A DNA stretch of 64,000 nt from Nemertoderma westbladi (lineage: Eukaryota > Animalia > Xenacoelomorpha): the NCBI GenBank assembly GCA_032718475.1, contig JAUCBJ010007173.1:124001-188000 (forward strand). Reading direction: 5' to 3'. This document shows, piece by piece, positions 1-33,937 of this stretch. The position numbers were made by a program, and so were the translations under genes. The notes beneath the pieces are model-generated. The model was given only the letters and a program-made list of their open reading frames with translations, did not search any database and was not told where the DNA came from. Numbering within the stretch: the first letter of the stretch is position 1; every line of letters begins with the position of its first letter.

Positions 1-1069
1 TGTTTATAAATCGACTTTAGCCTATATCAATTATTTCATGTACTGAAGTTACATCAGCCGAAGCCAGTCTGTGCACGATCATTCACCCACAGTTAAGGGA
101 GACTGGATTCGGATGCCTTGAAAGTTATTGCGGTGTAGACCTACTGTATTATTCGATTGATCGTTACTATATAATCTCTGACAATATATTTACTTTCGGG
201 GAAATATTAACAGTTCCTTTAGGACGTGGCGCTTTAAGTATAAAAACAGAGTTATGACTTATACTAATCACAACTAGATGGCCATAGAGTTTCGTAAATA
301 GCGCATTCTTTAGGAGATGCTTTATTATCTGTTACACTTCTTCACACGACTTCACACTACTTCACACTACTGCACACTGATCTGCCGATCATCACTGAAT
401 TTTCTCATATATAAGGAGGATCGCAACTGACACATGTAGGGATTATGAAATAGCATTTAATTCACACAAAAACCACTATAATGTAAGTCGCAATTGCTAC
501 CGGTAACCGGTTCCTCTTACCTTCAGTAATCAAGAAGATTGGGGGTTTTATGATTATTTATCGGTATTCTCCAAATATATCAGCAATATATATCAATATA
601 ACAACAATTAATAACAGAAGTAAAATAATGCGGTGAACAGTCAGTATGTGTTACATAATGCATTGCGTTTGTAATGAAAGACTGTAAGTGTCGGCCAGAT
701 AATAGATTTACGTTCTTATAATCAAAGCCATCAGATGTTTAGGCCAAAGTCTGAAACTTCCACACAGACGCACAGACGAATTCCAAGCCGGTTCTGAGGC
801 TCAGAAAGGTAAACAAAGACCGTAATGCATTGAGCGGTTTTCCATAGGCCTCTGTCCAACATAAAGTGAAAATCGCTCTGATTGGCTGAATAGGCAGAAC
901 AAAGAGGTTGCACATCTACAGGAAATCAGCTAACAGATTTCGTCATCTGAGCTCCAATCTTTTAGAGTATTATGCGCATTGCGTCAAAAATGACTTGTTA
1001 TGTCCGCAAAAGCACCTACACTGCGCATTGCGGGAAAAATGACTTGTTATGTCCGCAAAAGCTTTTACA
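1..1069 (-). repeat. 3' LTR of BEL element 1 (LTR A, cut by the window edge)
   Basis: Homologous to 21925-23044. On the minus strand it starts TGTAAAAGC directly after a purine tract. Confidence 0.88.
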
Positions 1070-1077
1070 CCGCTCCC
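1070..1077 (-). other. Polypurine tract of BEL element 1
   Basis: GGGAGCGG abuts the LTR start. The identical sequence is at 24485-24492 in element 2. Confidence 0.8.
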
Positions 1078-1147: not shown

Positions 1148-4100
1148 TTAGTCCTTCTTACGTGAACGGCGTTTACGAAGTTTTTTGAGGCTAGCAAGAG
1201 TCTTTTTCTCTTTGGGGCGAGCCACTTTACTAGGAGGGCTGTAACTCCTGGGTGAGGGGTGCAATACAATTGCATCGGAAGGTTTAGGGTTACGGTCGGT
1301 GTATCCGCCGGTCGAGGTACCCGGTTGATTGATATCATCCTCAGTGGAACGAGGTCGAACAACCTTTAGAGCGCGTTTCAAGACAGCAGCTCTTACTGGT
1401 CCCTTACGGGTCGTTTGCATGAGAGCGGTAGCCGTGAGTAGTGAGAAATTTGATGGTTCTTTCCAACTCGCGTTCTCGGGCTCTATACTCATAAGGTCGT
1501 CTATGAACTTCCTGTAATTCTGGATGCGAGTTGATGAACAAGTCACCATATTCCGGATCTTGACGGATGAAGTTGATCAAGTTATAGGAATTAAGGTCAT
1601 TAGGATTAATGTTCCTGAGGTACTTGCGAACAAATTTGGTCGAAATATTCTCGCCAACACGCTTCATTAGCTCATAGCTAGGTGTGCGAGATTTTTGCTC
1701 AACGGAAGCAAAGAGATACGGGTGAAACGCATAAACTCCTTCATAGGCACGTCCAGGGTAGTATCGATGACGTGACTCACAATGGAGATCCGCGTTAGCT
1801 TCCCAGGCTCGGATGTAACGCAGGGCAACTATTTCGTCTACGCTTTCCAGATCTCGGTTGAAAGGGCAATCAAAACTTGTGTGTCCTTTAAACTGGCAAT
1901 GATGGCATTGAGTTATAAATTGAGGGCAGACTGCGAAGATGTGTAAGTTATTGAGTCTACAATACGCACAATAGATCTCCATTGTGGGTTGATCTTGAAA
2001 GTAGGAGCAGGGTATGCTGGAGTCCACAGGGCAGGGGTGAAATGGTCTCGTGATGCGCATAATCGGCAACGTTTTCTAGAAACATAATTGGCATGCCGAT
2101 AATCGTATGCGGTGAGACATTGTGGACCTTGAGACTATTCCAGGACATAGTCGTTGTCACTGCTCCTGGGCGCTGTGGGCTGAATCTCCTCGGATTCTAA
2201 GCATATTGGTTCATCTTCCAATTGCGTAGCTGAGGTAGGTGTAGTTGTCTCCTCAAGCGAACCCACTGTTTGAACTTCCACGATAGAATAACCTGTGGGG
2301 ATTCGGGGTCTTTGTATGACAGAGGAATGTAAGTTCTGTATACAAACATCCTTGAAAATGGCGAATCCAGCGCTGTCTAACTTCTCAGCAGCTGAGTCTC
2401 TTAGGCTGAGCTTAGTCAAAGCGCGGTCCTTGAACTGACTATCAACGTTACGGAACGGAGTCAGAAAGCGCCTAAAGCATTCGAAGCGGATGAATTTATT
2501 GTGTTCATCTAGCTTGGCGAGTTTGGTAACAAGTAACAAGGGATGGGATGTATTGGCATACATAGTGCGGAAGAAACCTTGGCCTTCTGCCCAGGGAGCA
2601 ATCAGCTGGGTGTCTACGAAAGGATATGGGATATTCTCCATGTTCCTGAAGTCATTCTGGAGATCTCCATAAACAGCTGAGCTGATTTTAAGGATTCTTT
2701 TGTTAAACAACATCTCGAGCACTGGCTGGGGTAACATCGATCCATCTATACCCATGGCCGGTTTGCGCTCGGTATCGGTGATGTAGCGCTGCGCGAGTTC
2801 GAATTGTCCATGTCGGAGTTTCTTTTGGATCTCGGTGAGAGTCTCAAAGGAATAATCGATCACGTCGGAACACGCTCGGGTAAACACATGGGTACAAACC
2901 AGCTAGTCCACGTATGTGTATCATCATCGTAGTTCCCAGCTCTCCAACCGGAACGCTACCTTCGTTATCGTAAGTGACAACTCCATACATTTCGATAACG
3001 TTAAGAGTTTCGTTCCACTCTTTGGTGGCATTTTCTATGGTCATACCCACCGGATGCCATAAAGTGGCGCATTCGCTAGCGTTAGGTAGATCGCTATACT
3101 TCAGATAATGTGTAGTATACGTCTCTACATCTCCATATCGCTGTATTCTCTCTTCCTCGAATAATACATCGAGATTCCAATGGACTAATCGAGTTTTAAT
3201 AAATCCATCGAGATTATATGGGGGAATTATATCCTTTTCTATTCTAGAAACATTATAAGGTTTTCTGAATGAGTTTACTTTCACTAACTGATCCAGATGT
3301 TACTGTAGTTGTTCGAGTTCGACAAGATCGAGGGGATTTATCAGTGGTAGAAACCTTAAACTGTGTGTAGGATCTTCCGGTTTCACCATATAATATTGAG
3401 TTAGATTAACATAATAAGGATGGTCTTTGATCCCATAAAATGAGTTCGGTAAAGGTCTAGCGCGTAGGTTGACCTCGTGTACCATACGACGGACAAGATC
3501 CGCTCGATTGTCCGGAGGTTCAACAAGTATACCGTCGACACGAGCGGCTTCGATTGGCGGACGTTGTAACATAGGAGCGTCAGCGATAAGATCTCGAGAT
3601 CTTAGGTTGATATCAACCGGTTGGGGTTGTACCGTGGCGAAGAGTTTGTCTCCGAAATGGGGAACCATCGAGGGATGAATGATGGTTTTGGAATAGAGAT
3701 CAGTCATAAGGATTTGAGCTTCTGGTTGGGCTAAAGCTGCTTCTTCTCTCTCATCCATTTCGATGTGCTTCTCCTCGAGCTGATTTTCCTCCGCTTGTCG
3801 TTGGAAGCGTTCATCTAAAAACTCTTGTAGAGAGTAAGTTTGTCCAAGTTCGATGTCCTCCTTGAGATTCTGGATTTCTCGATCGAACTGAGGTAAAGCT
3901 AATTCCTTTACTGCTTGGACTTGCTGCTGCAATTTACGTTTATCTAAACAATCGTAAGTTCCTTTTCCGATCTTTTGTCGGATAGCGTCTAGCGCGTTTC
4001 GTACGACGCTCTCCTCCACCTCGGTGACTGGTTGTATCGGAGTTAAACCAGGACGATTATACGGGTTGAACGGCGATATTAAATGTCCGCGTCCCAATCC

Positions 4101-4289
4101 AGCTAGGTAGGAGGTTCGAATATCTAGAGAGCCCACTACCGGAGTGCCACCGATTAATTGTTCGGGTAACACTAGATCTTTGAACAGTGAGTACAGTTCA
4201 GGAGGATCCGTTATACTATTAGGATCAAGAGTTTGAGGTCTCACCAGGGAATGAGGAGGTCTGACCGAGTATTCCGGAACTCTGATCAT
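1148..4289 (-). pseudogene. Accessory ORF of BEL element 1: DEDD-like exonuclease, Cys/His knuckles and basic tail, broken into five ORF pieces
   Basis: 3300-4289 and 2844-3284 share a frame, separated by one TAA. The stop at 2135 is TGG in element 2. Element 2 keeps the 1148-2069 region as one 297-aa ORF. Motifs VVTYDNEG, LPQPVLEMLFNKRILKISSAVYGD, FVDTQLIA, CAYCRLNNLHIFAVC, CHHCQFKGHTSFDC. Confidence 0.7.
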
Positions 4290-4297
4290 CGGTTTAT

Positions 4298-5095
4298 TTA
4301 AGGATCGTTTGAGTCAAGCGACCTTAGGTGATACATCGAACAAGTTTCGTTCGAAACTCCCGTAAGTATAGCGAGTAAAACTGTGTTTAGCGCAAGTCTC
4401 CGCGGATGTTTATGTCTTTCCGTTTGTTGGTTGGGTCTAGGGCATTCATCGCAATAATACCAAAGACGCACGTCTTGCAGGGGAAACGCGGGTGATCTTT
4501 CTCCAGTTTTACAATATTCCTCCATCTGTTCGAAGCTATCCGGTACAACAGGTAGCGGTCGATCGGCGGTAAGATACATCATAGTGAAATAGAGTCGTTT
4601 GAGTTCTATCATAGGGTCATGATGTATACCTTGAGGATACCGAGTTTCTAGGTTTTGTTGACTGGCTACATTGAGATATGTTTCTCTCAAGAATTCCAAA
4701 TAGTCGTTGAAGTCACTACGTTTATCCGGCTCTTCAACGTCTTCTCTTTCGTGTTCGATTCTCAGTTTATCGTTCCGACTCCTCTGGGTATGATATTTAA
4801 ATAGGATCATTTCCCTTTCGGTGTCTACATCATCCGTATCGTGTAAATCGATAGGATGGCCAGTAGTTAAGAAGTCCATATACGTACCATTACGATGCGT
4901 ATAGCGAGCAGTGAATTTTCTATATTCCAATTCACGCGTGAGCTGTTCCTTGGACATTGGCAGTTCGATATAATGGCCATCGTCCTCCATAGTGGGTTGA
5001 CTAGCGTCGCCGCTTTTTAAACTATCAACAAACGCTTGCAATGGTAGGGTATATCGCTCCCTGATACCAAGATCATCTTCTATCAACTCAGTCAT
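4298..5095 (-). CDS. First accessory ORF of BEL element 1, acidic 265-aa protein of unknown function
   Basis: ATG-initiated ORF whose N-terminal ~115 aa are conserved in element 2 (25613-26011). Only 8 nt from the next ORF, so it may be the frameshifted start of one long protein. Confidence 0.65.
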   Translation of the reverse strand: MTELIEDDLGIRERYTLPLQAFVDSLKSGDASQPTMEDDGHYIELPMSKEQLTRELEYRKFTARYTHRNGTYMDFLTTGHPIDLHDTDDVDTEREMILFKYHTQRSRNDKLRIEHEREDVEEPDKRSDFNDYLEFLRETYLNVASQQNLETRYPQGIHHDPMIELKRLYFTMMYLTADRPLPVVPDSFEQMEEYCKTGERSPAFPLQDVRLWYYCDECPRPNQQTERHKHPRRLALNTVLLAILTGVSNETCSMYHLRSLDSNDP

Positions 5096-6829
5096 AGCTG
5101 CTATATGAGTTTATCGATATTATAATTAATTATATTTAGGCTAGCGGTCGTCGCTGCCTCCCCCTCAATGCCCCCGGACAGTGCAAGATCCTCAGTGTTG
5201 ATGTACTGTCGTCGCTGTGCCTCTCGCCAACGTAGTAGCTACACAACGACAACAATAACCAGCGCGAGTCACTCCACTGTCCGTCCCAAGGGCTTAGAAT
5301 TACTTCAGGTTCTTGCTACAGAGGTAGGGCAACTTTCACAACTGCAACTCGCTACTGTAAACACACTTTAGTAGTAACATTCACCTATAAATGCACAAAT
5401 TCCACACAACTGTCACAAATTGTACACATTCGGGCCATTTGTCCGTTAGTCAAGTGCCTTCCAGAATACCACGTTATTATTATGTATCCCTGGATACTAG
5501 CAGTGTGCTATTTATTCCGTATGCTATTCAATGGGGCAAGCTTTCTATTGTTCTTTTAACTCGCTTCTAATTCTAGCATGGTTGTTGCTATGGTGACATT
5601 ATGGAAAGCTAGCAGTAGAATTAGGGTAATTCTCATGCATACAGATCTGGGATGCCATTTAATAGTAATTCTTTAATTGTCAATATTCTTCCCCTTTATA
5701 CATGATTTTATGAATTTTATCGGCTATTGACTATACATTGGAGATTCTCTCACACTAATATACTTAATAGGGTGAATCTCCGCTCCCATGATCTATTAAT
5801 TAATGGAATTTTGGGAATGTTATAAATTGTATAAAATGACAATTTATCAAATTCATGAGAGGATATCAATTTAAAATTATTCCCGTAAATTTTATTATTT
5901 GACACTAAAATAGACACAATTTTATTCCAGAGCATTAATTCTAGGAAATTTGTCTTTTTAAGAGTATCGGTAAGTGCTACGATATCTTAATCGACTAGAA
6001 TTTTAAAGGATCTGAATTTTAACAGATTTTGGATTTATAGATTTTCTTGGTTTACAAACTCCTTAGAGTTTATTTGTATGCATTGACTCTATTATAACAT
6101 TTGTTTTAATAGATTTTATAAATATTTATTAAATATTTAATATTTGAGATGGGCACCGATTTATTCCAGAACATGTCTGGGGACGTTAACCACTGATTCT
6201 AGAATTTTGTCTTTCAAGTATATCGGTGGGTGCCGCGATATCTTAATCGACTAGAATTGCAGATGGTCAAAGGGTTTAACAGATTTATTTTGCGTTTTAC
6301 GCTACTGTTAAAGGGACATCATTCTACTATATGTATTATTTAATATACGGTATGAGAGCAATATTGCAAGAAGCAATGTCAGTGAGAAGAGGCAAGTCGT
6401 TTCCAAGGTCTCCCTCTCTACCCTATGCCAGGTCTTGGTTTAGCCGAGACACGAGGATCTGAACTTTGCATTCCTAATACTCTACTTACCAATAATACTT
6501 GAGTATAGTAGGGGCGGTATTTTGTACTTTAATAAGTACGGACATTTCATCTTACTGTAGTCACGTATCTATAATATTATACAGACAGTAAGAAAAGAGA
6601 AAATGAATTGTTTCTCGCCGTTAAACTAAATATATAATGTTAAGTAATTAAGTAATAAACACGAATATATATATTGCACTAATCTACTAAATAATCGCTA
6701 AATAATATTCTACTAAATAAAATTAAAGAAAACTATTATAATAAAATTACATAATAATACATACATAAATATAAAAATAATGAAAAACAGATATAAAATA
6801 ATGTAGTCACACACCCACTCCAGACGCTG

Positions 6830-8684
6830 TTACGTTGGGGAGTCCCTAGATGTTTGTTGGATTAGGGAGGTGGTCGTGGGAAGAGTATCTTGCCTTCCAT
6901 AGTTTCCGGATAGTTCTCTGTCTCTTTCCAGTAAACATAAACGACCAACTGGGCGATTGAGTTGTTGTGTTTTGAATACAATTCCAGGTTTCTTAAAGTT
7001 ACGTCGCATGACGACGAGTTCTACTGATCGCACTAAACCATCATCGGATATTTGAGTCTCGATGATACGACCTGTCTGCCACCGCTTTCGTGGAAGATCT
7101 GATTCCACAATAAGGACCATGTCTCCGGCGCTGACGTTTTCTTGCTGCGCAAACCATTTGGTTCGAAGTTGTAGCGTAGGCAAATAATGTTTTTCGAAAT
7201 GGTCAGCGAAACGACGGGATAATAACTGCATGAGTTGCCAAGTTTGTCGTCAGTATTCGTCTCCGTCCGTGATTTCCGATTGTGGGAGCATGGCTACAGG
7301 TTTCTTCAGTAGGAAATGCGCGGGTGTTAGCGCTTCTAGGGAGTCGGGACTCGATGAGACTGGCATAAGCGGTCTCTCGTTAAGATAGGCGGCGATTTGT
7401 TCCATTAACGTCCGCAAAAGTTCGTTTTTGAGATACGCACGGCACAGCACTATAAAGTAAAATGCGGTCTTCACGCTCCTTATTAATCTCTCCCAACTTC
7501 CTCCCCACCAAGGGGCGTCGGCGGCGTTGAAGGTCCAGCTAGATGCTGTTACCCTTAGCTGATCGTCCACCTGTCTTTGGTTCCAATCTTTAACGTAAGC
7601 TTTGATCTCGTTATTGGCGCCAATGAAGTTCATTCCCTTATCAGATCTCATCGTGTTGCTAGTTCCAAAGCGAGCGATCTGTCAGCATAAACTCAGTATG
7701 AAGCTATTGGTAGATAGATCGTTCACCATATCTAGATGGATCTCTCTACAAGTCATACAGACAAAAATGACACACCATCGCTTGACTATAGTCCTAGCAC
7801 GATATACTTCAATTGGGCCAAATAAATCCACACCAGTATTAGTAAAGGGTGGTTCATAAAAGCTTACTCATTCCCTAGGTAATTCTGCCTCTCGCTGTGT
7901 TAAAGGCCTACTGAATGCTTTCCTACAGGGTATAAAGTTCCTAAGAACTTGGTTCAGAGCTCTACGGGGCTTATGGAAATAATAGCGAGTTCGAATTTCG
8001 CTAAGAACTCATTCTCTACCAGCATGGTAAAGCCTACTGTGAATATCTACAATCATCTTGATTTGTATTTCAAGATTTCTAATGAGTATGAGAAACTTAG
8101 TGTCAAAGGATAATGGAGCATTAGTTAGTCTCCCTCCAACACGTATTAACCCATCTATCATTGTGCTAGAGAAACGATCCCTTAAGCGCATCTGTGGATT
8201 TCTCAACAACAGGAAATACTTATCGGAATCTTCATAGCATTGCAAGAGTCTCAGTATCTGCTTATTGGTTGCTTCATGCTCTTGGTAACTGATCATCTCC
8301 GTCAGAAACCTATCCGACACTTTGTATGTGGGAAGATCTTTAATAGCATGGACCTGCTCGGATGTCAGTGGAGCGGTATCACTAGCGATCTTCGTCCTGG
8401 AATAGTGATGATGGAAGCATCGCTTCAGATACACGACGGCCTTACAAAGCCGATTCTAGGAGCTATAGTGATTTATTGCTCTCTGCAGGAGAGGTGAGAG
8501 TCCTTGCGAGACATCTGGTGTTCCAGATTTCCAGTCTCTTTCTCTGATGTCTATAACAGATCTGTTCGTGGTGGGGGAGTTTAGATCCGCAGCGTCGTCC
8601 CTGGAAATGTGTAGTACAGACAGATCTATCATGGGTTTAAATAACTTTGATTTACTCGTCCGGGTTTTAGGTTTGACTTTCTCC
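6830..8684 (-). pseudogene. pol: BEL element 1 pol C-terminal part (integrase), with stops and frameshifts
   Basis: GLIRVGGRL, H-x4-H zinc finger start, SDKGMNFIGA, PWWGGSWERLIRSVK, LNERPL, LTPAHFL, WQTGRI, RPVGRLCLL. Confidence 0.9.
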
Positions 8685-8689
8685 GCTCC

Positions 8690-8938
8690 TGTAGGCGTAT
8701 CTACTATTGCTGCGAGGCAGCAGACGAATAAAACCTTTGTCTATAGCAGATACTGTCAGATAGATATGTATAATAGGGTCCTCCGGGGACCGGTCACGGC
8801 ATGTAACAAGTGGCCTAGATAAAAGAATATGTACTGCAGTGCTCTGACTAACACCGACATACTGACTGTCCAACCCCGGTAGGTCTCTCCCCCCTCGTCC
8901 CAGGGTGTCCGTGGGGCGAGCCATATATTATCACCACA
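8690..8938 (-). repeat. 3' LTR of nested Mag-like element
   Basis: Appears identical to 13465-13713. Confidence 0.95.
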
Positions 8939-8997
8939 CCCCCTTACGAGCTCGGATTAGCCGTCTAAGGCTGTGCCGAGCTATCAACCGTTCTGTC

Positions 8998-11600
8998 CTA
9001 CAGTCTGTCGGGTTGCTGACGCGTCCGTTTTGGATACCTCGAAACTGAAAGTTTATCGAAGGTCTGAGTTTCCACTAGGGGTTCACGCCAACGCAGTTTC
9101 TTGGTGGGTGTGGGTCCCGTTGGGGCCGCATCCGGTGGCGGAGGGCCCATTGGTGTCGCCTGGTGGGCGGTGTCCGGGATTAGTAAGCGTCGGTTCCGGA
9201 CAAGGGTGCGTCCGGACGGCATCCGGACTGTATACTTCCGGTGGGAACCAGTCTCTACGACGGTTCCAGCGCGATCCCATCGCTTGGTGGTCGGGTGTTG
9301 AACCCTTACCCGGGCGCCTACCGTGAGAGGTTCCAAATCTTTGGCGCCGCGGTTGTACTGGGTGGTCCGGGCCGATTTGATGGCTGGCGCCACCCGGTCT
9401 AGCTCCGTCCGGGTCTCTTGTATAGTCCGGGCGAAGGCGGTGTGGTGAGCTGGGACACGCGTCCGCATTGGGTGTCCGAAGACAATGTCCGCTGGGGAAG
9501 AGCCGCTCTCCCTGGGGCTGTTGCGGAGTTCCAGGAGCCCCTCCAGGAACACTTCGGACGTAGTAGAGCCCCCGGTCTTTACCAGAAGGCTCTTCAGGGC
9601 CTTTACCGCCGACTCGGCGTGCCCGTTACTCTGGGGGTATTCCGGTGACGACGTGACCGGTGTGACCCCCCATTCCTTCAGGAATTTCGTCGTCGCTGCC
9701 GCGGTGAATGGGGTCCCGCCATCCGAGCGAAAGCGGGTCGGCACCCCGTACCGGATGAACCAGTCTCGCAGGGCGGTGATTGTCCGGTCGGCAGTAGGTG
9801 GGGCGGAAAACGAGTACACTTCCGGCCATCCGGAATATCGATCGGCGGCGGCCAGGAAGTGCTTCGCCCCAAGGGAGAAGAAGTCCCCCGAAATGTCCTC
9901 GAAGGGTCGAGTGGGTGGAGGTTCCGACTGGAACGACTCCTTTGTCTGGCTCGATCGGCCGGTCAGACATTCGCTGCAAGCGCCCACGGTCGTCCGGATA
10001 TCGTTAGTTATGCCCGGCCAGTAGACACACTGCCGGGCACGTCGGAGCGTCTTCTCCACCCCCTGGTGCGAGGCGTGGAGGCGCGTAAGGGTAGATTTCC
10101 GCGACGCTGTGGGGACCACAATGCGATGGCCCAGCAGGGCCAGGTCCCCGTCCGTGGTTAACTGGTCCCGGACAGACCAGAAGATGTTCACCGCTGGGTT
10201 CGTCCGGGTGGATTCCGGAAACCCAGCCTCGATAGCCGCGAGTAGGGCTTTGTAGTCCGGATCGTCCCGAGCCAGTCGGGCGAGTTCATCGAGGACTGGA
10301 TCCGCGAGGTGGGCGGAATCGGAGCCGGTTATGTCGGCGGCGGTCTGGCGGGTGACGGCCCGGATGTACGTCGCCATTTCGCCGTCGTCCACGATGTCAT
10401 CCGGTGTCGGGTCATTGACGGGGGCGCGGGACAACGCGTCGGCTATGGCGTGGTCCTTCCCCTTTGTCCACGTGGTGGTAAACTGGTAGGGAGCCAGTTT
10501 CGTTTTGAGCCGCTGGAGGCGCGTGTTGTCGGTCGCGTCCACCGTGTACTTGTCGATGATCGTCACCAACGGCTGGTGGTCAACGATTAGGTTGAAGTGT
10601 GGGAGGCCGAGAAGGTACATACGGCACTTCTGCACTGCCCATACGACGGCGAGCAGCTCGAGTTCTACCATGGCATACCGGGACTCGGTCTCGGTGGTGA
10701 ACCTCGAGCCGCACTCGACCAGCTTCCAGTCCTCCCCGTGAAGTTGGAGGAGGGCGTAGCCGAGGCCCTTCAGCCGGGACGCGTCTGTCACTAGGCGGGT
10801 CTCCCGGGTCGTGTCGAACGGGACGAGGGCCGGCGGTGACGTCAGAGCCAGCTTGGTGGCCTCGAAGGCCCGTTCGTGGTCCACCGTCCAGATGAAGGTC
10901 GCCTTCGTGCTTAGGAGGGGACGTAGCGGGGACATCGCGGCAGCGATGTCTGCTGAGAACGGAGCGAGTTGCTCCACCAGTCCGAGGAAGCTCCGGAGAT
11001 CGGTGATGTTCCCAGGGCGGGGGAAGCCGGCGATCGCCTTCAGTTTCTCAGGGTCGGCTTTTATCCCAGAGGCGCCGACGAGGTACCCAGCGAACCGAAC
11101 CTCGGTCTGGGCAAACTGAACCTTCCCCGGGTGTAACGTGATCCCGTAGGTCCGGCACCGCTCCATAAACCTCGCGATGTTCTCCATGTGTTCCTCCATT
11201 GTATCGTTGTAGAGGAGTACATCGTCTACAACCTTGATGAGGTTAGGAAGTCCCTGGATGGCGTCGTCGCCTCGACGGTTAAACTCGTCGCCGGACGAGA
11301 TCAGCCCCATCACACTACGAGTGTGACAGTACCGGCCCCAGGGAGTCGCGAAGGTGGTGAGGAGTTGGGATTCCTCGTCGAGGGGAACCTGCCAGTAGCC
11401 ACTGGCTGCGTCGAACACGGAGAAAATCTTTGCAGTCGTGGAGACTCCGGCGACGCGGTCCGTGGATTCGGCGTCGGGTAATAGGGGCGTCGGACCTGCG
11501 AGTTTAGGTGGCGGAGGTCCACGCAGAGTCGCAGTCCTCCGTTGGGTTTAGGCGCCACCGTCATCGGATGGGCCCATTCCGTAGGTTCCTCGACCCGGGT
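8998..11600 (-). CDS. pol: Gypsy pol (RT, RNase H, integrase), frameshifted near 11440 and 11600
   Basis: LRLCVDLRHLN, FDAASGYWQ, VVDDVLL, VTDAS, ELELLAV, VDHQPL, H-x3-H..C-x2-C zinc finger, SDGGTPF, SNGHAE. Confidence 0.92.
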
Positions 11601-13435
11601 GATGACTCTAGCTTGTCGAGGAGTTCTTTCACCTTGTCCCGCATCGCGAACGGGACAGGTCGCGCGCCGTTGACGTGGAACGGCTTGGCCCCGTCCTTCA
11701 GCTGGATACGCATGGGCGGGCCATGCATCGTTGGAAGAGGCGCGGAGTCGTTGTCAAACACGTCGCTGAACTCGCGGAGGAGATTGTCCCGGGAGCGGAT
11801 CGCCGGGGACGGAGCAACAGAAGCGACGGTTCCGCGGCTGTGTAGGGGCGCCGGGAAGGTGCGCGGGAGGATGTCCAGGTCCTGGATGGTCTTCTTCGAG
11901 AGGATCAGTCCGTCGGACTCGGGAGAGATGACCAGCTCGGTGGTCGCCGTCGTCCCGCAGTAGTTGATCTCCACTGGGTACCGCCCCACGGCCGCCATGG
12001 GGAGTCGGTTGGCCGCCTCGAACTTGTCGTCATCTCGAAGCGGGAGGAGGTCGTCGAGTCGCCCTCCGAACCGGAGAAACAGTCCCTGGTTGAAGATGTT
12101 AGCGGCCGCACCGCTGTCCGGGAGGGAGTGACGAACCGTCCCCTTGAGGTTCCCGATCCCGGAGTCCGTCAGGCCCACCGCGATATAAGAGAGTTTGCAG
12201 GCTGTTTCCTGATGGTTGGCAACGCTGCTAATACTCTGGCAGTGGTACACTGTGGACACCCTCTTCTTGGTGGCGGATCGGGACCGGCACATCCGCTTGA
12301 TATGCCCCGTCCTGCCACAGCCGTGGCACTTGACCCCCTTGGCGGGGCATTCCGAGCCCGCCTCATGGGGTTCCCGGCCGCAGTTGCCGCAACTGCGGCC
12401 GCTAGGGTTCCGCCACGCGGGGTCGGGTGATGAGTTCCGGGTGCCCATCGGGGAGCGGGAGATAGCGGGGTTGCGGGAGGTCGAGCGTTCGCGTTTGTAC
12501 GCGGAGAGTTTGTTTACTGGTTTCCCGCTCGCGAGGATCGAGTCGTTCCGTTCGCTGGCTTCCACGCTCTGCGCGATCCTCACGCAGTCCTCGAGGGTCG
12601 GTTGAGGAAGAACCTTGAGGAGTTCCGTCCGGGTCTCTGAACATCGGAGACCCACTAGGATCTGGGTAACGATCTGCCGGTCGCGGCAGTTCCCGCAGAG
12701 CTCCGCAGTGTCTGCGAGATCCTCCAGGGCCACCCGGAAGGAATCGAATCCCTCGGTCGCGCCTTGCCGGCGCTCGTGGAACTTGATCGCGTCGATCGCG
12801 ATACTCCTCTTGGCACGGAGGTGGCCCTGGAGTGCATCGAGGACCGTCTCCGTGGTTGTATCGTCCGCGTCGATGTCCACATGTAGGGTGACGCGGATGG
12901 TCTCCTGTAGGCCGCTACCGAGGGCAGCAACGAGAGCGTAAACCTGCTCGGCTCACGGGAACGTAGCGACCTGTTGTCGGTGGGCGTGGACCCGCCACGC
13001 CTGTCTCCACCGGCGGAACATGGAGAACTCGACGTCCACATCGATCTTCTCCATCGTCGAGATGTCGATTACCCGGCGTCGGGGAACCGGGTTCGTGACG
13101 GCCCCCGCGTACGTGGGTTGGGTCGTCGGTAGTTCCGGTGTGGCGGCCGCCGCCATGCCGGGTTGTAAAGCCGCGAGGAGTTTAGCGATGCTTTCGTCCG
13201 CGGCCGCCTGTTGTTGAAGTAGGCGGTCATCCGCAGCCTCCTGGCGACGGTTGGCGTCCTCCTGCTGTTGCGCCAGCAGCTGAGCCATAGCAGTCTGCTG
13301 TTGGGCGAGGATTCGCGCGAGGTCGTCCATTCGGATAGGGGCACGACTGCCGCCTCGGGCTTCTAGAGTTTCGTCGCCGTCGCTGCTGTCCGCCGTGGGC
13401 AGGGACGTGATCTTCCCTTTGGATTTAGGCGGCAT
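11561..13435 (-). CDS. gag: Gypsy gag-protease, frameshifted near 12960
   Basis: Two knuckles (CGNCGREPH..C, CHGCGRTGHIKRMC) and protease PDSGA. The ATG lies just after the PBS. Confidence 0.88.
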
Positions 13436-13452
13436 GGGCCCAAATTATCCTA

Positions 13453-13464
13453 CACACTGCGCCA
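13453..13464 (-). other. tRNA primer-binding site (probably tRNA-Ser)
   Basis: TGGCGCAGTGTG directly after the 5' LTR. The same PBS occurs at 61132-61143. Confidence 0.8.
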
Positions 13465-13713
13465 TGTAGGCGTATCTACTATTGCTGCGAGGCAGCAGAC
13501 GAATAAAACCTTTGTCTATAGCAGATACTGTCAGATAGATATGTATAATAGGGTCCTCCGGGGACCGGTCACGGCATGTAACAAGTGGCCTAGATAAAAG
13601 AATATGTACTGCAGTGCTCTGACTAACACCGACATACTGACTGTCCAACCCCGGTAGGTCTCTCCCCCCTCGTCCCAGGGTGTCCGTGGGGCGAGCCATA
13701 TATTATCACCACA
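13465..13713 (-). repeat. 5' LTR of nested Mag-like element
   Basis: Direct repeat of 8690-8938. Confidence 0.95.
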
Positions 13714-13718
13714 GCTCC

Positions 13719-16700
13719 CTTGGCTTGTCTAATGTCAGCCGTGGTAAGATGAGGAGGCCATTCATCCTCTTCTTTACTTAGGAAGTCGGGTCCACCTAAC
13801 CAGTCTGGAGTATCTATCAGTTCTTGAGGGGTTGCTCCTCTAGAGGCGATGTCGGCTGGATTAATCGTCCCAGGGCAATGTCTCCATTGATCTACATTCG
13901 AGCGACTAAGTATAATGGCTACTCTGTTGGTAACGAAGATGCTGAACTGACAGACTTCATTGGTTATATACTCCAAAACGAGTAAAGCATCAGTCCAATA
14001 GACAGTTTTCTCCAGTGGATAGTCGATCTGTTCTGTTACATTCCGGCCGATGGCTGTAGCATATAGAGCCGCCTTTAACTCCGCTCGAGGAACTCGTAGT
14101 TTGTTGTTTATCAAGGCCTTAGAGGTGACCAAGGCAACTTTGATTCCATCCGGAGTTTCAACCCTCAGGTAGGCTACTATACCTATTCGCATATCGCTGG
14201 CGTCTCCAAACACATGGAGTTGATAGGAATACGTGGGGAGAACATGACCAAAATATGAATGGGAAATCGTAAAGTTCTCGATGGATGGTAGAGAATCTTC
14301 CCATTTCATGCACTTCTTTAGTAGTTCTCCCGTAAGTGGATCATCCCACGAGTGGTTTTCAAGCCACATTTGTTGCACTAAGCTCCGAGCAACCAATATA
14401 ACTGGACTAATAAATCCCAATGATAAGTGCTCAGGATACTTAGACAAATCCGTTTAGTTCTAACTGGATTATCTCGCTGTTTTAACTGGAAAAACAAGAT
14501 ATCTCTCTCCGTGTCCCATTTTAAACCAATCGTTTTGGTTTCTGGAAGGTTGTCCTTGATGAGGTCCAGATTTTTAACGCCTCGGTCTTCTACCGGAATC
14601 GATTCCAGACACTCACGGGAGTTACTAGTGAATTTGGTTAGTCGAAATCCACCGCGTTGCAAGCACTCTACCGTTCCCTTGGCAACATCAATGGCTTCTT
14701 CCACCGATGGGAGGGACTTTAAATTGTCGTCCATGTATATATCCCGTTTGATGTTGTCGATAACCGCTTTAGAGAAGGTGTCTCTGTTGTCAGTAGTACG
14801 CACTACTGAACAAGCGTTCGAGGGGCTCGAGATGATCCCGAAAGCCTGGATGGTCATCCAGTACTCCACCGGTTTTAGGTTGAGATCTCCTTCAGGCCAC
14901 CACAGAAATCATAGGCTGTCTCGATCCCTATCCAGTGCCTTGACTTGTAAGAACATGCCTTCTATATCCGAAGCGAAAGCGATAGAATATTGCCGTAATC
15001 TTAATAGTATTCCCAACAAGGATTGGAGTAAGTTGGGTCCCGGCAACAATTCAGAGTTCAGGGATTGACCCATGTAAAGGGCGGAGCCGTCGAACACTAC
15101 CCGGACTTCGTTGGGTTTACCGGGTTTGGGAACGTAATGATGTGTTAGATAATACGTTCTCTCTGTTATGGGTGTTTCTTCCGGTACTCTCTCCACGTAT
15201 CCCTTATCAATAAATTTCTTCAGCTGGGTTTTATACATTTCCCTAGCTGAAACATTGGCTGTAAGACGCCGATGTAGTTGCGCGATTCTCTTTTCCGCTA
15301 AAGGTCGGTTATTTATAAAGTTGGGTTCTCGCCGTCAGAACGGAAGACCAATCTCATCTCGACCTTCATCTTTCAGAAAACGGGTAGTCGTTTCCTGAAT
15401 CTGCTTGGCTCTCTCTTCCTCGATGGACAAGGCCTTGTCGTAGGAATTAGGCTCTACGGCTTCTTGAGTAAAGAATCGTACGGTGTGTTCATCGCGAAAT
15501 TTATTGTTGTATCGATCTATCACTTCGTTTAATTCGTCGTTGTAGGTGAATTGTCCGCCATGATTGATGAGATGGCACAGGTTTACTTGGTTTAACCAAG
15601 TTTCATTTTCGGTGAGGAGGTCGATTGTATTTTCCTCGTCGTATAATTGGTTAATATCGTAATTATCTGAGGAGTATGGTGTTCCCTCAGTTGTGGTTTC
15701 TCCCTCACTGATTTCTTCTTCCCATTCACTCACCTGATGTATCATCTCATGAGGGAGTCTTTCCATTAGTGTTCTACGGGAAGGTCCAGTGAAGTACCAA
15801 CCTACTCTCGTTCTTCCCGCGTACGTTTGTAATGGTTGCGGTCGAGCAGGCCTTTTTCTAATGTCTCAAGCGCCTTGTGCGCATTTTGGCCGATTAATAT
15901 CTGCACCCCTAGGTAGTCAGTGTTGAATCTAGGAATATCATGCTGCTGGGTAAAATGGTCTTCATCGCAGTTGTAAGGTTCCACTTGGCTGGTAGCAAAG
16001 TTCTTTATCGTCACCATTTTTATTGACCTTATGCTATGTTCTCCTAGTTCATCCTGGGGAGTGGACAATGCACACACATAGTAATCTGTAGCTACTGTGG
16101 ATTTCCAAACCTGCATAATTCCTGAAAGGTTCAACTTAGTTCGGAACTTGGGTTGTCCAGCAAAGATGTCTTCGGCTAGTTCTTTGTCAATGAATGTACC
16201 TGTGCTGCTGGAGTCAAGGAGGGCGTTTGCTATCAAGCTTTTCCCTAGTCCATGGACTCTCAGCTGCACTACAGGGAATTCCCGGATTCCGACGTTGTAA
16301 GTCGGCGCTTTCCAAGATGGTTGCCGGTCCGGAATAGTCAGTCGAGGATCTTCATCGTTTGTTTCAGTCTTATACGTAAGTGCTCGATACACTGCGGTGT
16401 TTATCATATAACAGGATTCGTTTTCGTCTTAGAATTCGTCCGTGTTGAATCCTTCCATCTCAGAGCTGTGGTCAGTGTCGTTCACATCACTGAATTGGAC
16501 ATGTAGTTCGGGCTCACTTACCTGACTCGTGCGGGTTCTGTCAAATTCTGTGTGCAGCAAGATATGATGTTTCGCGCCGCACTTAGCACACCTCGCGTCT
16601 GAGTAACAGGTCCGCCATTGGTGTCCTTGTCTGAGACAATTATAACACAACCGCTTATCCCACATGACATCACGTCTATCCTTTAGGGATTTCTTCAAGA

Positions 16701-17148
16701 ATTCATCACATCCACTCAAGCGATGGGGCCCGTCGCACAATGCACATTTGGGTTTGATGTTACTTACTTTAACCTGTGTGGTGTTGTGCACACTTGTTCT
16801 TTCCTCGGGTTTTCTTCCATGAATTATCTTAGGAGACGTTGGAGGAGTTGTTACCTGCTCTCTCCTGTCACTGGTTCGAGATTTAGATTTACTTACGTCT
16901 TTCTTCAGTTTGTTTACATAATAAGATCTTTTGGTGTCTTTCCCGCTGTTCTCCTCGTGGGAGGTTTGGCTTTCGCCGTCGTCTGTATAACACACTGGTG
17001 TTACCTTTCTCCTAGAAACGGGTTTTTCACTCACCTTATGTTCCGGTGTCTTCTCTCGGGACTGCTTTAGGAGCTGTAATCTTACCTCTCCATTTAAGAA
17101 TGACATGAGATCAGCCATGGTAGGGTCCCTTTGTTGCTGGTCCATCAT
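13719..17148 (-). pseudogene. pol: BEL element 1 gag knuckles, protease, RT and RNase H (fragmented)
   Basis: ORF pieces 16429-17148, 15802-16407, 15335-15766, 14909-15238, 14378-14869 and 13623-14447 carry consecutive BEL motifs. Confidence 0.9.
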
Positions 17149-17166
17149 ATAGAGAACTCTTTTGTC

Positions 17167-20030
17167 TCAACAAGTACCTACTCCACCCTTTGGCAAAGTA
17201 GATGCTACAGCTCCAACAACCATGGAACTCTGATATTCCTGAGACTTACCTAACCAATCTAGTTGTCTACAGATCTCCTGAATCTCATCGGAAAACTCTA
17301 TAATCCCGCTGCTAAGGAACTTTCGGGGCGCTACTAATTTCGCATACAAATACCTAGCTATGTTAGTCCTATTACCATACCTGATGTTTAGTGTATCCCA
17401 AACTTGTCTTAATCCATCTGGATGTCCAATAAACTTTAACGCCATTAACTTGGGAGGTCCTTCCAAGCACTCGATGAGGAATCTAAGTTTCTCTCCGTTA
17501 GATATTACAGAGTTCTGTATGTTATCTTTATAAAATTCATTAAAAGGTAACCATTTCATCTCATCTCCATTGAACTTGACAACCTCTCCCACCTTTACCG
17601 CTTGACGGGCTTCAGTTCTAGCCATTTGATGCGTAAAACTTTCTTGGGCCATCGTATTATTTAATATCGAGTTATCGGTATATACATTTCTCGGATTATG
17701 ATCAGGTCTATATGGAATATCATTATCAACAGGTTTATAATTACCCTTAATAGGGTTTACTATAGGAGTTTCTACTTCACTAGCAGTATAGATGCATGTA
17801 GGCTCCACACCTTGCGCATGAAATACTTCAGACCTAACAGGTTGACACATCGTTACAGGGGGTGGTGGTATACCCATTTGTATATTTACTAATTTATCGC
17901 GCTCTAAAGCGATACGCTGCTGCACTTCTTGCAACTCTAACCTACTCTCTCTTACTGTTCCCTTTAACTGCTGAACAGTCCCTTCCAACTCTCGGACCTG
18001 CTGGGAAGAATGTAATTTATGTTCCTCCAGCTGCCTGAGCAGGCGATCCATCCCCCGCCGTCCCTCGTCTACCCACTCTACCGCCGAAGCGGGAGCCGCC
18101 AACATAGTAGCGGGTTGACGCGTAGGGACGACGGGCGACAAATCATTTATGTCTTGCTCGGCATCCAGGACCGGGAGTGATTCAGGGGCTGTTCTACTGG
18201 GCACAGGTAGTTTAGTACTGTGCAAAGGGAATTTAGAGTTAGGTTCTGGAAGTACAGGTGTCTCTATCACAGAGGGAGTGGCTTCGAGGACAGGCCTAAT
18301 TATTTCAGGCTCATCTACTATAGTAGGGAGTCTTTCTACTCTAATAATTTGGTCTGTAGGCTCAGGATTACTTAACTCTACACTAGCTAGTTGCCTTCTC
18401 ACAGTTGGAGGCAAATTAGGCAATTTCTGCCGGTATGGCGCTCTTCTACGTCCGCTTGAACAAGATTTATTTCCTCTACCTTCAGGATCTATTGTATCGC
18501 CTTCATCAGAGGATGTAAATCCCTGTCTCCTGGGAGTAGATTGACTTAGCAGCTGCATCTGAGTAGCTGTTCTCTGTTTCTTCAAGTAATCTTGTTTCGC
18601 TTGAAGGTTCTCCAGCTCTAGTTGGGTAGTCGCTTCAGACGCCTTCAGTTCTGCTTCTGCCACTGCCGCCTTTCTTTCAGCCTCTGCAGCTAACGCCTTC
18701 CTCTCAGATTCTGCCGCTGCCGCTTCCGCTGCCGCTTTTCTTTCAGCCTCTGCAGCTTTTCTTTCAGTCTCTGCAGCTGACGCCTTCCTCTCAGATTCTG
18801 CTGCTGCCGCTGCTGCTGCTGCTTTTCTTTCAGATTCCGCCGCTGCTGCTGATCTTCGGTCTTCTATTTGCCATTTGTTTAATTGTTCATCTTGATCCAT
18901 TGCCATGAGGATGCTTTCATCAAATTTAGCCTGCTCCGCAGCTAATATTTCCGCATCTAACGAGTCCAACACAAATTTGGCTCCCTCACTATTAGGGTGA
19001 AGTCCAGCTAGCCGTCTCCTTAACTCTTTGTCACCTATAACTCGTTGATAGTCCGACAGATAGATGTCAATAGCATCCTTCTTCTGAGGTTTCTCGGATG
19101 TAACTTTGCCTTCCACCTGAGAAAAGGTAGCGTCTGTTGATTCTCCGTGGGTCATGCGCTCGGTTAGCTGAATTTTCCATGAGGCTGTTCCTTGGACTTT
19201 AAGACTCACCCGTTGGAACCAAGTCTTTATGGCGACTTGCAACGACGTGTCTTGGCTTCTCTTCGAGGCTTCCTCAAAGGCTGAAAGGATTAGTCTGATC
19301 CGTAGAATTCGTTCTCGAACTTGATAAAGCAGCTCTCCCTGCTCTTGAGGTCCGTGAGGTTGTTGAAACAGGTGTTCCTCTAATCGCTCCAAAGAGCTGA
19401 AGAATCCCTGGACATATCCTGCTGCCGACCTCTTCCACACAGCGGGATCTCGAGTATCCTTTACTACTCCCATCCGGTATAAGTCCTCCCAGGCAGCTTC
19501 CGATAAGTTAAACGAGAGTCCGGGCCGGGGAAGTTCCATTGCGTCTCGACAATAGACTTCAGTTCCTCCATCGTGTATCCCGCATAACTGTCCCTGGTCG
19601 ATCGCTTACTTCTCACCCAATCGATTTGATGTTCTTCCACAGCGATCAATACTCTCGTGAGTACAGCTCCAGGAAGAATTAGAAGTGGATCTGGATAAAC
19701 CGCTTCTGCCATCATTGCTCCGATCTCGGGTGTCAACTCTACAGTGTCTGAACTGCTAGAGTTATCGGGCCATTGAGAAATAATTTCTCGGTTCGGGTGC
19801 TGCTGCTGTTTAACAGCTGCCTCTTGGTCGCGCTTGACTTGAGCCCTAGTGCCTATGATAGACCTATGGTACTTTACTAGTCTAGGGTCTGATACTACTA
19901 CTGTAGGGATGACCTTTCTTACAGTAGGAGGGGACTTGGACTTCGGTCTCCGATTTTCTATACTCCTATCTGAGTCACAGACTGTTCTTTCTAGGAGACT
20001 ATCTGACAGTGTTTGCTTTGTATCAGCCAT
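17167..20030 (-). pseudogene. gag: BEL element 1 gag N-terminal region (frameshift near 19540, stop at 17167)
   Basis: Coiled-coil segments with AAEAERK repeats, then VKFNGDEMKWLPF..EKLRFLIECLEG..LNIRYG typical of Pao gag. Homologous to 29992-31749. Confidence 0.85.
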
Positions 20031-21857
20031 GATTTATTTTACAGTTGAATGCCTACTACTATAACGACAGTCAAAGCAAGTCTAGTAATTCAGTATCAAC
20101 TGTAAGCCTAGTAATTAATTACCGATACCGTTACTCAGTGTAACGTGATATATATAATATATTAAAATACTGGTATACACTTATAGTATATATATAAGTA
20201 TTATTATAGACTAGAATTAGTCACAGAATACCGGTATATAATTTCAGCCTAAATTTATATAAATATATATAATAAGCCTACCGTAAATACCGGTATACAC
20301 CTATAGTATATATAAGTATTATTACAGACTAGGATTAGTCACAGAATACCGGTATATAATTTCAGCCTAAATTTATATAAATATATATAATAAGCCTACC
20401 TTAAATACCGGTAATGTCAATTATTGATAATAACTGAATTTCTGAATTTTAGGGTTACTTTCCTTTACTTTATTACTGTTATTAAGCAGTAGTCCAACTG
20501 ATATTAAGACCTAATTGATGTATAACAGGCCTACTATTTTATAAATCGGTTTGAGTTGATTTATAATATATTATGTACCCGTACAAGGGTTTTTGACAAT
20601 ATTTGAAATAAATGTTGTTATTTCTGGGTAAGGAGTCACTACACAGATAATTCTACTTTACTAAGTTACTTATCACTACAAATTACTTACAATTGCAGTT
20701 TGAGATTACAATCTCTAAATAAACACTAAAAGTTACACATACAATTTTTAGGGTAATTTTACAAGAAATCTACAAACCAGCCTAACAAGGAGTTAGAATT
20801 TCTGGCTCTTACAAACTGACAGGATACTACGGTATTTGAAAACAATAAAGCAGTAGTAAGTAAATTGCGTTGTCCAGGATAAGGAAATACCACCGTCTGA
20901 TGACTTATAGTCTTAGCTCTATAAGTACTACGTTATGTACCCGGAGTGTCCTTACCTAGAAGTTAATTACCGAAGCCAACCAGAGCTAACGTGCCTATTA
21001 ACCACGTTACAACACAAATATACTGCCTACACACAAAATTACTTTCGGAAAGCACTGTACTCTAAACCCTAAATTAGGTACGGTACAAGTACTTATACAA
21101 CAAATAACCAGCAGTTAAATATACTTGAACAGCCAAAAGAACCACGGTATCTGCTGGAGTGACCGGAGCACAAAATCACCAGTCTTTACCTACGCCAAGC
21201 AGCCCTGATGTAGTACCGGGGTTAATTTAACTATAACGGTATGTATAACAAGCACAATTACTGTAGGAATAAACTTGGGGAGTTGGAGGTTGCGAATACT
21301 CACATAGACTCTGAATAATAAATATTACGCTACCCGTGCAGACTATACAAACAAAACACAGACCAAATGCTGGCAGACTACTGTCAAGCCTAAATAAACT
21401 ACAGTATATGCAGACTCCGAAATGGTTAGTTAGTAGGCGTTCTAACCAAGTAGTACGGCTTATTCTTTCATGGAGGATTTACCTTACAGCACTGGATGCC
21501 TCCACCTTCCTAACTAGCACTTTATCGGACAGACACTCTACATACACTGCAATCGCATCAGACCTAACAACAGTTAGACAACAATCCGGCCTACAAATTT
21601 TTTATAAAATCTGAGCAGGCTTACACGCCTTCTGCTCAATATTACACTTACAGATAAATAAAACTGACAGAAATAAGTAAAATCCCAATAAAAACCAGGG
21701 ATGAAGTCCCCGATTAAATATTAAGACCTACCGGTATATAATTATCACAATCGAAATAATACTGCTGTACCTGTAAGTACCGGTTCGGATCAGGCCTACA
21801 GTTTACCGTCCTACCGGTACATTCGACTTTATTGCCTACGGCGCAATAAAGAAACCC
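20031..21857 (-). other. Long AT-rich 5' leader of BEL element 1 with ~119-bp tandem duplications (20165-20415)
   Basis: Non-coding. Homologous to 31750-33990 and, inverted, to 63375-64000. Confidence 0.75.
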
Positions 21858-21869
21858 TAAATCTATTAA
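21858..21869 (-). other. Non-tRNA primer-binding site of element 1 (TTAATAGATTTA)
   Basis: Abuts the 5' LTR, lacks TGG, and is exactly complementary to LTR positions 22656-22667. Confidence 0.8.
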
Positions 21870-23044
21870 TGTTTGCGCTTTCAGACCTTTAGCAGTTTAA
21901 CCTGCCAATTTTAATTGTCCTTTTCTTTATAAATCGACTTTAGCCCTTACCAATTACCTGGTGTGCTGAAGTTACATCCGCCGAAGCCAGTCCGTTCGCG
22001 GCGTATGACCCACGGTGTGGGAGACTGGATTTGGATTCCTTGGGAAGTATTGCAGTGTAGACCTACTGTATTATTCGATTGATTGCTACTATATAAATTC
22101 TGACAACTATATTTACTTTCGGGGAAATATTAACAGTTCCTTTAGGACATGGCGCTTTAAGTATAAAAACAGAGTTATGACTTATACTAATCACAACTAG
22201 ATGGCCACAGAGTTACGTAAATAGTGCATTCTTTAGGAGATGCTTTATTAACCTTCACACTACTTCACACGACTTCACACGACTTCACACTACTTCACAC
22301 TACTTTACACTACTTCGCACTAATTTGCCGACCATCACTGAATTTGATCATATATAAGGAGGATTGCGACTGACACACGTAGGGATTATGAAATAGCATT
22401 TAATTCACACAAAACCACTGTAATTTAAGTCGCAGTTGCTACCGGTAGACTCTATTCCTCTTACCTCAGTAATCAAGAAGTTTGAGGGGTTTATGATTAT
22501 TTATCGGTATTCTCCAAATATAACATCAACATCCATTAATATAACAACAATTAATATTATATAAAACAGAAGTAAAATAGTGCGGTGAAATGAGTTAAGT
22601 GTCCAGTGTCCGGAGGGTGAGTAAGACAGTTATTCAGTAGGTAAGTAAGTTCAGGTTAATAGATTTACGTTCTTATAACCAAGGCCATCAGATGTTCCTG
22701 GGCCAAAGTCTAAAACTTCCGTACAGAAGCACAGAATCCTGAGTTGAATCTAATTCTCAGAAAATAGTGATAATTGAATCTAATTCTCAGAAAATAATAA
22801 TAATAACCATCATGCATTGCGCGAGTTTCTCGGGTAGGGCTCTGTTAGCCGTAAAGTGAAAATTGCTCTGATTGGCTAAAAGCCGGAACAAAGAAACCTC
22901 CACGTACACAGAGAATCAGCTGACAGATTTCGTCATCCTGGTTCTAATTCCTTTCCGACGCGTAGTTGAATAATTTTAGGGCTATTTTAGAGTATTCTGC
23001 GCATTGCGTAAAAATGACTTGTTATGTCTGCAAAAGCTTTTATG
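21870..23044 (-). repeat. 5' LTR of BEL element 1 (LTR B)
   Basis: Plus strand starts TGTTTGCGCTTT and ends AAAAGCTTTTA(TG), with the terminal dinucleotide mutated. Contains 10-bp CTTCACAC(T/G)A repeats and a CCAAT box. Confidence 0.88.
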
Positions 23045-23217
23045 CGCAGACCTTCACTGCGATGCATGCCACCGTTACTATCCTGGACGCGCCTATGAGG
23101 GAGTGTATGCGTTTCACCCCTACCTATTTCCCTAAATCGAACAGAAAACTCGTATTCCCAGTTATGAACTACTCAAACGTGTTGGTGAGTCCATTTCCAC
23201 CAAATATGTGAGAAAAT
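23045..23217 (+). pseudogene. Remnant of a related accessory ORF, left part, interrupted by element 2
   Basis: Translates ADLHCDACHRYYPGRAYEGVYAFHPYLFP*IEQKTRIPSYELLKRVGESISTKYVRK, homologous to 1404-2069. Confidence 0.85.
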
Positions 23218-24484: not shown

Positions 24485-24562
24485 CCGCTCCCAGAAAATG
24501 GGATTTGAGTCTATAAAATATACAAAATCACAGTTTCTAATATACGTAAATACTCTAAACAG

Positions 24563-29983: not shown

Positions 29984-29991
29984 CGTGTTAT

Positions 29992-33812: not shown

Positions 33813-33937
33813 AAGTACCGGTTAGGACAGTTGGGCCTACGGACCTACAGAAGTACCGGTTCTGGCAGTTGGACCTACGGACCTACAGCAGTACCGGTTC
33901 TGGCAGTTGGGCCTACTGACCTACAGAAGTACCGGTT
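33813..33937. repeat. ~38-bp tandem repeat, three copies, in element 2 leader
   Basis: Unit GTACCGGTTCTGGCAGTTGGGCCTACGGACCTACAGAA. Confidence 0.85.

Follow-up and report, generated by a model that had tools for sequence, protein, structure and literature searches.

A 64,000-nucleotide stretch of the Nemertoderma westbladi contig JAUCBJ010007173.1 (positions 124,001 to 188,000 of the forward strand; hereafter the window, numbered from its first letter) carries a minus-strand long terminal repeat (LTR) retrotransposon of the BEL/Pao type, here element 1, in which a third open reading frame, ORF3, is placed between pol and the polypurine tract (PPT). ORF3 is one long conserved gene that is broken in the window copy, and the parts of it shared with a second family member, element 2, are under strong purifying selection; by this selection signal, ORF3 is a real gene. 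It is tentatively explained, at slightly less than an even chance, as a conserved third gene combining a divergent, weak or dead DEDDy exonuclease fold with zinc knuckles and a basic tail, the product of which would be an RNA-binding accessory factor for the family's own RNA. The features concerned are as follows (nt, nucleotides; aa, amino acids).

1148 to 5092, minus strand: ORF3 of element 1, about 1,310-1,315 codons from the ATG at 5092 to the stop at 1148, with three stops and four frameshifts here.
3100 to 5092, minus strand: N-terminal ~660 aa of ORF3, without a recognisable domain; its first 121 codons are conserved with element 2.
2958 to 2981, minus strand: candidate Exo I motif VVTYDNEG (D-x-E), which matches Exo I best within its piece.
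2846 to 2863, minus strand: second possible Exo I register, VIDYSF, which lacks Glu, from a MAFFT alignment to RNase D without insertion.
2594 to 2728, minus strand: RNase D-like Exo II region (QPVLEML...YGDL...FVDTQLIA), the sole significant homology.
2381 to 2434, minus strand: stretch at the Exo III position, FKDRALTKLSLRDSAAEK, gap-free and the best in its piece, without the canonical Tyr and Asp.
1866 to 2068, minus strand: three Cys/His knuckle-like motifs, one of them canonical CCHC.
1151 to 1285, minus strand: Lys/Arg-rich tail, the last 45 aa being 33-36% Lys/Arg.
23217 to 35270, minus strand: element 2, a young, internally deleted family member whose LTRs show 2 differences in 1,269 nt; its target-site duplication (TSD) is of 5 bp, AAAAT.
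24563 to 26008, minus strand: ORF3 of element 2, reduced to the first 121 codons and a 349-aa open frame for the knuckles and tail, having lost the nuclease-like domain (equivalent of 2219-4747).

Six overlapping minus-strand frames of 142-337 aa each tile 5110-1148 and the PPT lies at 1070-1077, confirming the original prediction, made from the letters of the window, of about 4 kb of sense-strand coding sequence between pol and PPT. The in-frame stops of the window copy are at 4316, 3302 and 2137, and its frame changes are near 4395, 2895, 2030 and 1435. Other copies were represented by element 2 and by contigs of four DNA runs (at most three samples, one organism), for which 40 of ~970 variable places were listed. 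The stops at 4316 and 3302 are among these 40 places, and nearly all of the depth there differs from the window in all four runs, while the third stop is open in element 2. Indel rows occur in run contigs at each of the four frame changes with partial shares of the depth, and the last two (near 2030 and 1435) are open in element 2. Because other copies differ at the breaks, the suggestion of one long protein interrupted by single stops and frameshifts holds. Contigs of all four runs span all 30 bins of the ORF3 stretch, with 15,077 contigs aligned in the best run (summed contig depth is not taken as copy number); alignment is gap-free in 22 of the 32 listed contig pieces, and many differ at 10-20% of letters, some inside the nuclease-like domain. 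The ORF3 family is thus a highly repeated BEL/Pao family. Joints skipping ~1484-3760 (~2,270 nt of ORF3) were also found in three of the four runs, marking a deletion derivative distinct from that of element 2.

The N-terminus of ORF3 is acidic. Hydropathy in a 19-residue window reaches at most 1.07 across eight segments, and neither a signal peptide nor a transmembrane anchor of the env type was found in these segments, as had been predicted. Since ORF3 has no hydrophobic segment, it is not env, and this identity was rejected.

Element 2 keeps the parts of element 1 in unchanged order, apart from two large deletions, and therefore ORF3 belongs to the element as one unit. The ratio of nonsynonymous to synonymous changes (dN/dS) between the two elements, calculated by the Nei-Gojobori method with a 95% bootstrap interval, is 0.072 (0.049-0.103) over the 456 codons common to both; the nuclease-like domain, deleted in element 2, is outside this figure. 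The comparison of copies suggested earlier thus yields a value far from 1. By part, the first 121 codons have a dN/dS of 0.18, the surroundings of the first knuckle 0.05 and the tail 0.12, and synonymous changes are saturated in the main knuckle block of 199 codons (pS 0.78). For comparison, the values of three gag blocks are 0.14-0.16. Against element 3, third positions account for 33 of 45 differences of element 1 and 38 of 49 of element 2 (raw counts), and they make up 22 of the 37 listed variable places in ORF3, which is a selected list. Inside the nuclease-like domain the signs that suggest selection are indirect and mixed; divergent contigs align gap-free there, for instance with 47 other letters in 240 nt.

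The motifs VVTYDNEG, MMIHI, LPQPVLEMLFNKRILKISSAVYGD and FVDTQLIA, which had been read as following WRN/Mut-7/EXD-type exonucleases, are all present in that order, with a frameshift parting the first two from the rest. For the unbroken piece 2138-2902, only two of 18,950 NCBIfam families match, both of them RNase D (E 0.0036 and 0.0098, residues 59-104), and reading the domain across its break, with X at that place, gave these two matches again. With an RNase D/Pol I profile the piece scores 12.4 bits and comes out ahead of all others in a field of 694 window ORFs and 2,002 controls (shuffled or reversed), the best control reaching 6.5. This profile was built from 51 bacterial and phage domains and holds no eukaryotic WRN, EXD or Mut-7 sequences, and therefore the donor subfamily is not fixed by it. 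The Exo II Asp stands in an RNase D-like context (E 0.0036), and the Exo II sub-profile score was reached by none of 1,000 shuffles. Exo I is ambiguous: VVTYDNEG would require an insertion of ~45 aa before Exo II, and the MAFFT alignment, in which the domain is 13-23% identical to RNase D, favours the second register. In the best Exo III register of the window copy, D-S-A-A-E, Asp replaces Tyr and Glu replaces Asp, and Y-x3-D was not found in this copy; the motif had been called unclear from the start, rightly so.

Other searches returned no nuclease. Neither Pfam nor PHROGs matched an exonuclease family, even when the break in the domain was bridged with X, and PDB sequence searches likewise yielded no nuclease. 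HMMER found no relative of piece 2138-2902 among 1.84 billion representatives. For the exonuclease piece and the knuckle ORF, no homologue was obtained in a word-index protein search (longer proteins only) or among viral and metagenome contigs, and a plasmid search gave no homologue of ORF3. The ESM Atlas yielded no usable match for the exonuclease piece. An unguided single-sequence AlphaFold model of the domain, with a predicted local distance difference test (pLDDT) score of 32.7 and a predicted template modelling (pTM) score of 0.18, says nothing either way, and the fold search with this low-confidence model, which gave helical matches only (best Z 5.2), is uninformative. A model guided by RNase D (pLDDT 60.6, pTM 0.55) matches DEDDy structures including Nibbler, EXD2, WRN and Egalitarian; because it is circular, it is not counted as evidence.

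Judged from these sequence comparisons, a whole DEDDy (RNase D/WRN-type) fold in ORF3 is quite likely, canonical catalysis by it is rather doubtful, and the active site is probably weak or dead. Of the original prediction, the exonuclease likeness stands in so far as RNase D families match and the piece outranks all window ORFs and controls, but the Exo I match lacks significance and can be read in two registers. Likewise, the proposed check by Pfam and structure prediction gave neither an exonuclease family nor a confident unguided model, whereas NCBIfam did give RNase D. The captured active nuclease is not established, with Exo III lacking YxxxD, Exo I ambiguous and no independent fold match.

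All three predicted Cys/His motifs are present downstream of the domain, but only one, CX2CX4HX4C, is a canonical CCHC zinc knuckle, with a Pfam score below the cut-off; CX2CX5HX4C and CX2CX4HX9C are variants. In the ESM Atlas, the knuckle ORF has zinc-knuckle leads below 0.9 only (best 0.86, CCHC proteins). The Lys/Arg tail, likewise anticipated, was found, and could possibly be a nuclear signal or bind RNA.

The RNA-binding accessory reading is preferred because Exo III is non-canonical, RNA-binding modules are added to the domain, and such domains have repeatedly been captured by unrelated retroelements; this repeated capture suggests a benefit of a general kind, not one specific to priming. 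The exonuclease-shaped pocket would hold RNA 3' ends, while the zinc knuckles and basic tail would grip the body of the RNA, and the product may shield or chaperone transcripts of the element, protecting them from host 3' decay and from small-RNA processing. Acting in trans, it would allow deleted copies such as element 2 to be mobilised still. This shielding mechanism is conceivable, at a chance somewhat further below even than the accessory role itself. The inactive DEDD derivatives Maelstrom and EXD1 keep RNA binding (PMC5408684).

Several points weigh against this reading. The value of 0.072 covers the flanks of the nuclease-like domain and not the domain itself, inside which third positions are only four of eight listed variable places; derivatives without the domain exist, namely element 2 and the ~1484-3760 joints of three of the four runs. 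Significant homology spans only ~45 aa, neither Exo I nor Exo III is matched significantly (the matches were equalled by 186 and 46 of 500 shuffles, respectively), and Pfam with E up to 10 gives no exonuclease match. In addition, the state of the active site was read from one decayed copy, so that the family as a whole may not share the dead site.

The host element and its own relatives in the window provide the context for priming, and comprise the following.

1 to 1069, minus strand: 3' LTR of element 1, starting TGTAAAAGC, with its TGT start at 1069; it appears cut by the window edge.
1070 to 1077, minus strand: polypurine tract GGGAGCGG.
5093 to 6830, minus strand: non-coding spacer of 1.7 kb from pol to ORF3, 34% GC, with 25 ATGs.
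6830 to 20033, minus strand: degenerate gag-pol of element 1, with DUF1759, triple Cys-His box, YMDD reverse transcriptase, Peptidase_A17 and DUF5641; a Gypsy element lies inside at 8690-13721.
21858 to 21869, minus strand: primer-site position of element 1, where 12 nt can pair with the element's own 5' LTR and no tRNA-type TGG is present.
21870 to 23042, minus strand: 5' LTR of element 1, without the TG end.
22656 to 22667, minus strand: candidate self-primer of element 1, located within its 5' LTR and pairing with the primer-site position.
23046 to 23216, plus strand: remnant of a third family member, from downstream of the ORF3 knuckles, resuming at 35271-35412 beyond the element 2 insertion.

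From the 5' LTR, the order in element 1 is gag, pol, spacer, ORF3, PPT and 3' LTR. By its domains the host element of ORF3 is BEL/Pao (Belpaoviridae): DUF1759 occurs with a triple Cys-His box, the patterns of which are as in PMC554778, a Pao Peptidase_A17 is present, and DUF5641 ends pol. The ends agree, with TGT...ACA and a 5-bp TSD in element 2 and a PPT in both elements. Since the 1.7-kb spacer holds 25 ATGs, we infer that ORF3 may be expressed from a separate or spliced message; no pyrimidine-rich splice acceptor was found within 420 nt of the ORF3 ATG.

Element 2 was inserted, with its 5-bp duplication, in the ORF3 of the opposite-strand family member, and the 5' LTR of element 1 abuts that remnant, forming a self-insertion nest. 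The LTRs of element 1 (1-1069 and 21870-23042) are 77% alike by BLAST and 87% alike in aligned columns, and their divergence is greater than expected by age from dN to element 2 (0.077); element 1 may be a recombinant of two subfamilies. At 17167-20033, ~800 extra codons with Ala/Glu/Lys heptad-like repeats precede DUF1759 in element 1, and these are partly missing in element 2. Elsewhere in the window, three Ty3/Gypsy elements occur at 8690-13721, 41052-45574 and 56535-61353, the LTR-like terminal repeats of the first two being ~99% alike, and an ORF with a fibrinogen C-terminal domain (38199-39197; Pfam E 4e-50) adjoins a 21-bp tandem array at 39108-40600.

Members of Belpaoviridae carry an 18-nt primer site for tRNA-Arg or tRNA-Gly (PMC8742986). 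No such site was found in the three copies compared here, in which TGG is absent from the first 6 nt of the primer site. Instead, the first 11-12 nt past the 5' LTR pair perfectly with the copy's own LTR in all three, whereas six cross-element 5' LTR pairings reach at most 6 nt. The primer-site positions (21858-21869, 33992-34003 and 63363-63373) differ in letters from copy to copy, and the LTR partner lies 750-800 nt before the 5' LTR end, with a TTATA motif 5-6 nt upstream in each. The best pairing score was matched by 0, 3 and 0 per 100 shuffles in the three copies; the top score of element 4 belongs to a second segment. This segment, more conserved and ~17-20 nt past the 5' LTR, forms a hairpin (21840-21860, 33965-33990 and 63380-63405), and in elements 2 and 4 it also complements the LTR ~200 nt before the LTR end. 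Such element-specific complementarity to the own LTR is of the Tf1 type, and the family appears to prime from its own LTR rather than from tRNA, resembling Tf1 self-priming. The self-primer alluded to in the original prediction is hence borne out at the level of sequence.

Two further roles may be considered. An active 3'-5' exonuclease could mature the self-primer, trimming the 3' flap to the duplex edge for reverse transcriptase after pairing and cutting. Tf1, however, self-primes with RNase H alone. The primer-trimming idea fits the lack of a tRNA-type site and the 11-12 nt of own-LTR pairing in three of three copies, against at most 6 nt in the cross-element pairings; a candidate D-x-E, the Exo II Asp and an acidic residue at the last position are at hand, and trimming of structured RNA ends is known for RNase D-type enzymes (PMC5408684). 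Exo III without Tyr and Asp speaks against it, as do the DEDDy ORF3s of unrelated elements, and it is considered improbable. Equally improbable is its broader form, a self-priming BEL/Pao lineage that would encode its own primer-maturation factor, in which a rewired DEDDy-fold enzyme (acidic residues for Tyr and Asp) with three knuckles would trim and chaperone the self-primer in place of tRNA. Slightly less improbable, though still unlikely, is an active or decoy antagonist of piRNA/siRNA processing, like Nibbler, Mut-7 or EXD1, that would degrade or sequester small RNAs or compete with host trimming enzymes. The highly repeated state of the family (15,077 contigs aligned in one run) agrees with this, and the fold matches of the guided model, circular as it is, include Nibbler, EXD2, WRN and Egalitarian. 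A silencing role was raised by Rodriguez et al., who nevertheless found copy number not clearly tied to ORF3 (PMC5408684).

Other alternatives deny the nuclease ancestry or the gene itself. RNase D likeness by chance or as a remnant, with ORF3 being a knuckle-bearing accessory protein of another fold, would account for the modest E-values, the lack of a relative among 1.84 billion representatives and the 13-23% identity to RNase D; yet both NCBIfam matches are to one family and lie in the very region picked out by eye beforehand, and Exo I-, II- and III-like stretches stand in the right order, which makes it a minor contender. A degenerate env or a passively captured, functionless host gene agrees with the env position and the seven breaks of the window copy, but is largely refuted by the selection signal, there being also no hydrophobic segment and other copies that differ at the breaks, and is very improbable. 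Thus, the accessory factor for the family's own RNA, with a weak or dead DEDDy fold, is retained as the favoured reading.

A DEDDy ORF3 at the env position is already published and is not a new kind of system: RNase D-like DEDDy ORF3s are known from the rotifer LTR retrotransposons Juno and Vesta and from Athena/Terminon elements (Rodriguez, Kenefick and Arkhipova, 2017, PMC5408684), where a 3'-end processing or mut-7-like role was already suggested, and two reviews repeat these findings (PMC5718144, PMC6431247). Juno, Vesta and Athena share with the present case a non-env ORF3 after pol, the absence of a transmembrane segment, an RNase D-like domain and an altered acidic motif. Nevertheless, Juno and Vesta form a separate deep-branching LTR clade, whereas ORF3 here resides in BEL/Pao. 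It is also unlike the rotifer ORFs in its ~1,310 aa, its N-terminal half without a recognisable domain, its three knuckles and its basic tail; its RNase D similarity is far weaker, and its Exo III is without Tyr and Asp while the rotifer ORFs keep the invariant residues as DEED. Resequenced rotifer env and GDSL ORF3s show neutral intragenomic variation (PMC5408684), and among DNA transposons, Dada elements have a DEDDy domain too (PMC3706591). In the literature library searched, no publication describes an exonuclease ORF of BEL/Pao, and the accessible portions of PMC5603734, PMC11662393, PMC11599104, PMC3118150, PMC12451622 and PMC3315495 hold nothing on one.

The Exo II region and DTQ strand of ORF3 match the profiles of cellular RNase D, to which Rrp6, WRN, EXD2, Nibbler/Mut-7 and Egalitarian are related, although its Exo III is not canonical, unlike that of cellular DEDDy proteins. 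An RNase D homologue is also said to have been described by Frame, Cutfield and Poulter in 2001 as an extra ORF of a Caenorhabditis elegans BEL-like (Cer) element; if so, superfamily, position and enzyme family would be as here. To our knowledge, neither a knuckle array nor self-priming of the present type is recorded for that element. Fusion of an exonuclease with CCHC, as proposed here, is found in a trypanosome RNase D (PDB 7c42/7c45). The env-bearing belpaoviruses Tas, Cer7/Cer13 and Atlas also have a third coding region, placed after pol and before the 3' LTR (PMC9094657, PMC554778, PMC8742986), but the family here shows no glycoprotein features and no tRNA-Arg/Gly primer site.

In Tf1/sushi self-priming, a primer site of ~11 nt is complementary to the element's own LTR and no tRNA site is present; the family here has an own-LTR primer site as well, but Tf1 is a Ty3/Gypsy element and this family is BEL/Pao. 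Ever since the rotifer report (PMC5408684), it has been an open question what nuclease-like ORF3s do in LTR retrotransposons. With a highly repeated family and strong purifying selection on ORF3, an assembled genome would allow residue-level tests of active-site retention, and a DEDDy-like ORF3 united with tRNA-independent priming in one family makes the primer-trimming idea testable. Compared with the known systems, the size of ORF3, its knuckle array, its BEL/Pao host and its link with self-priming are distinctive.

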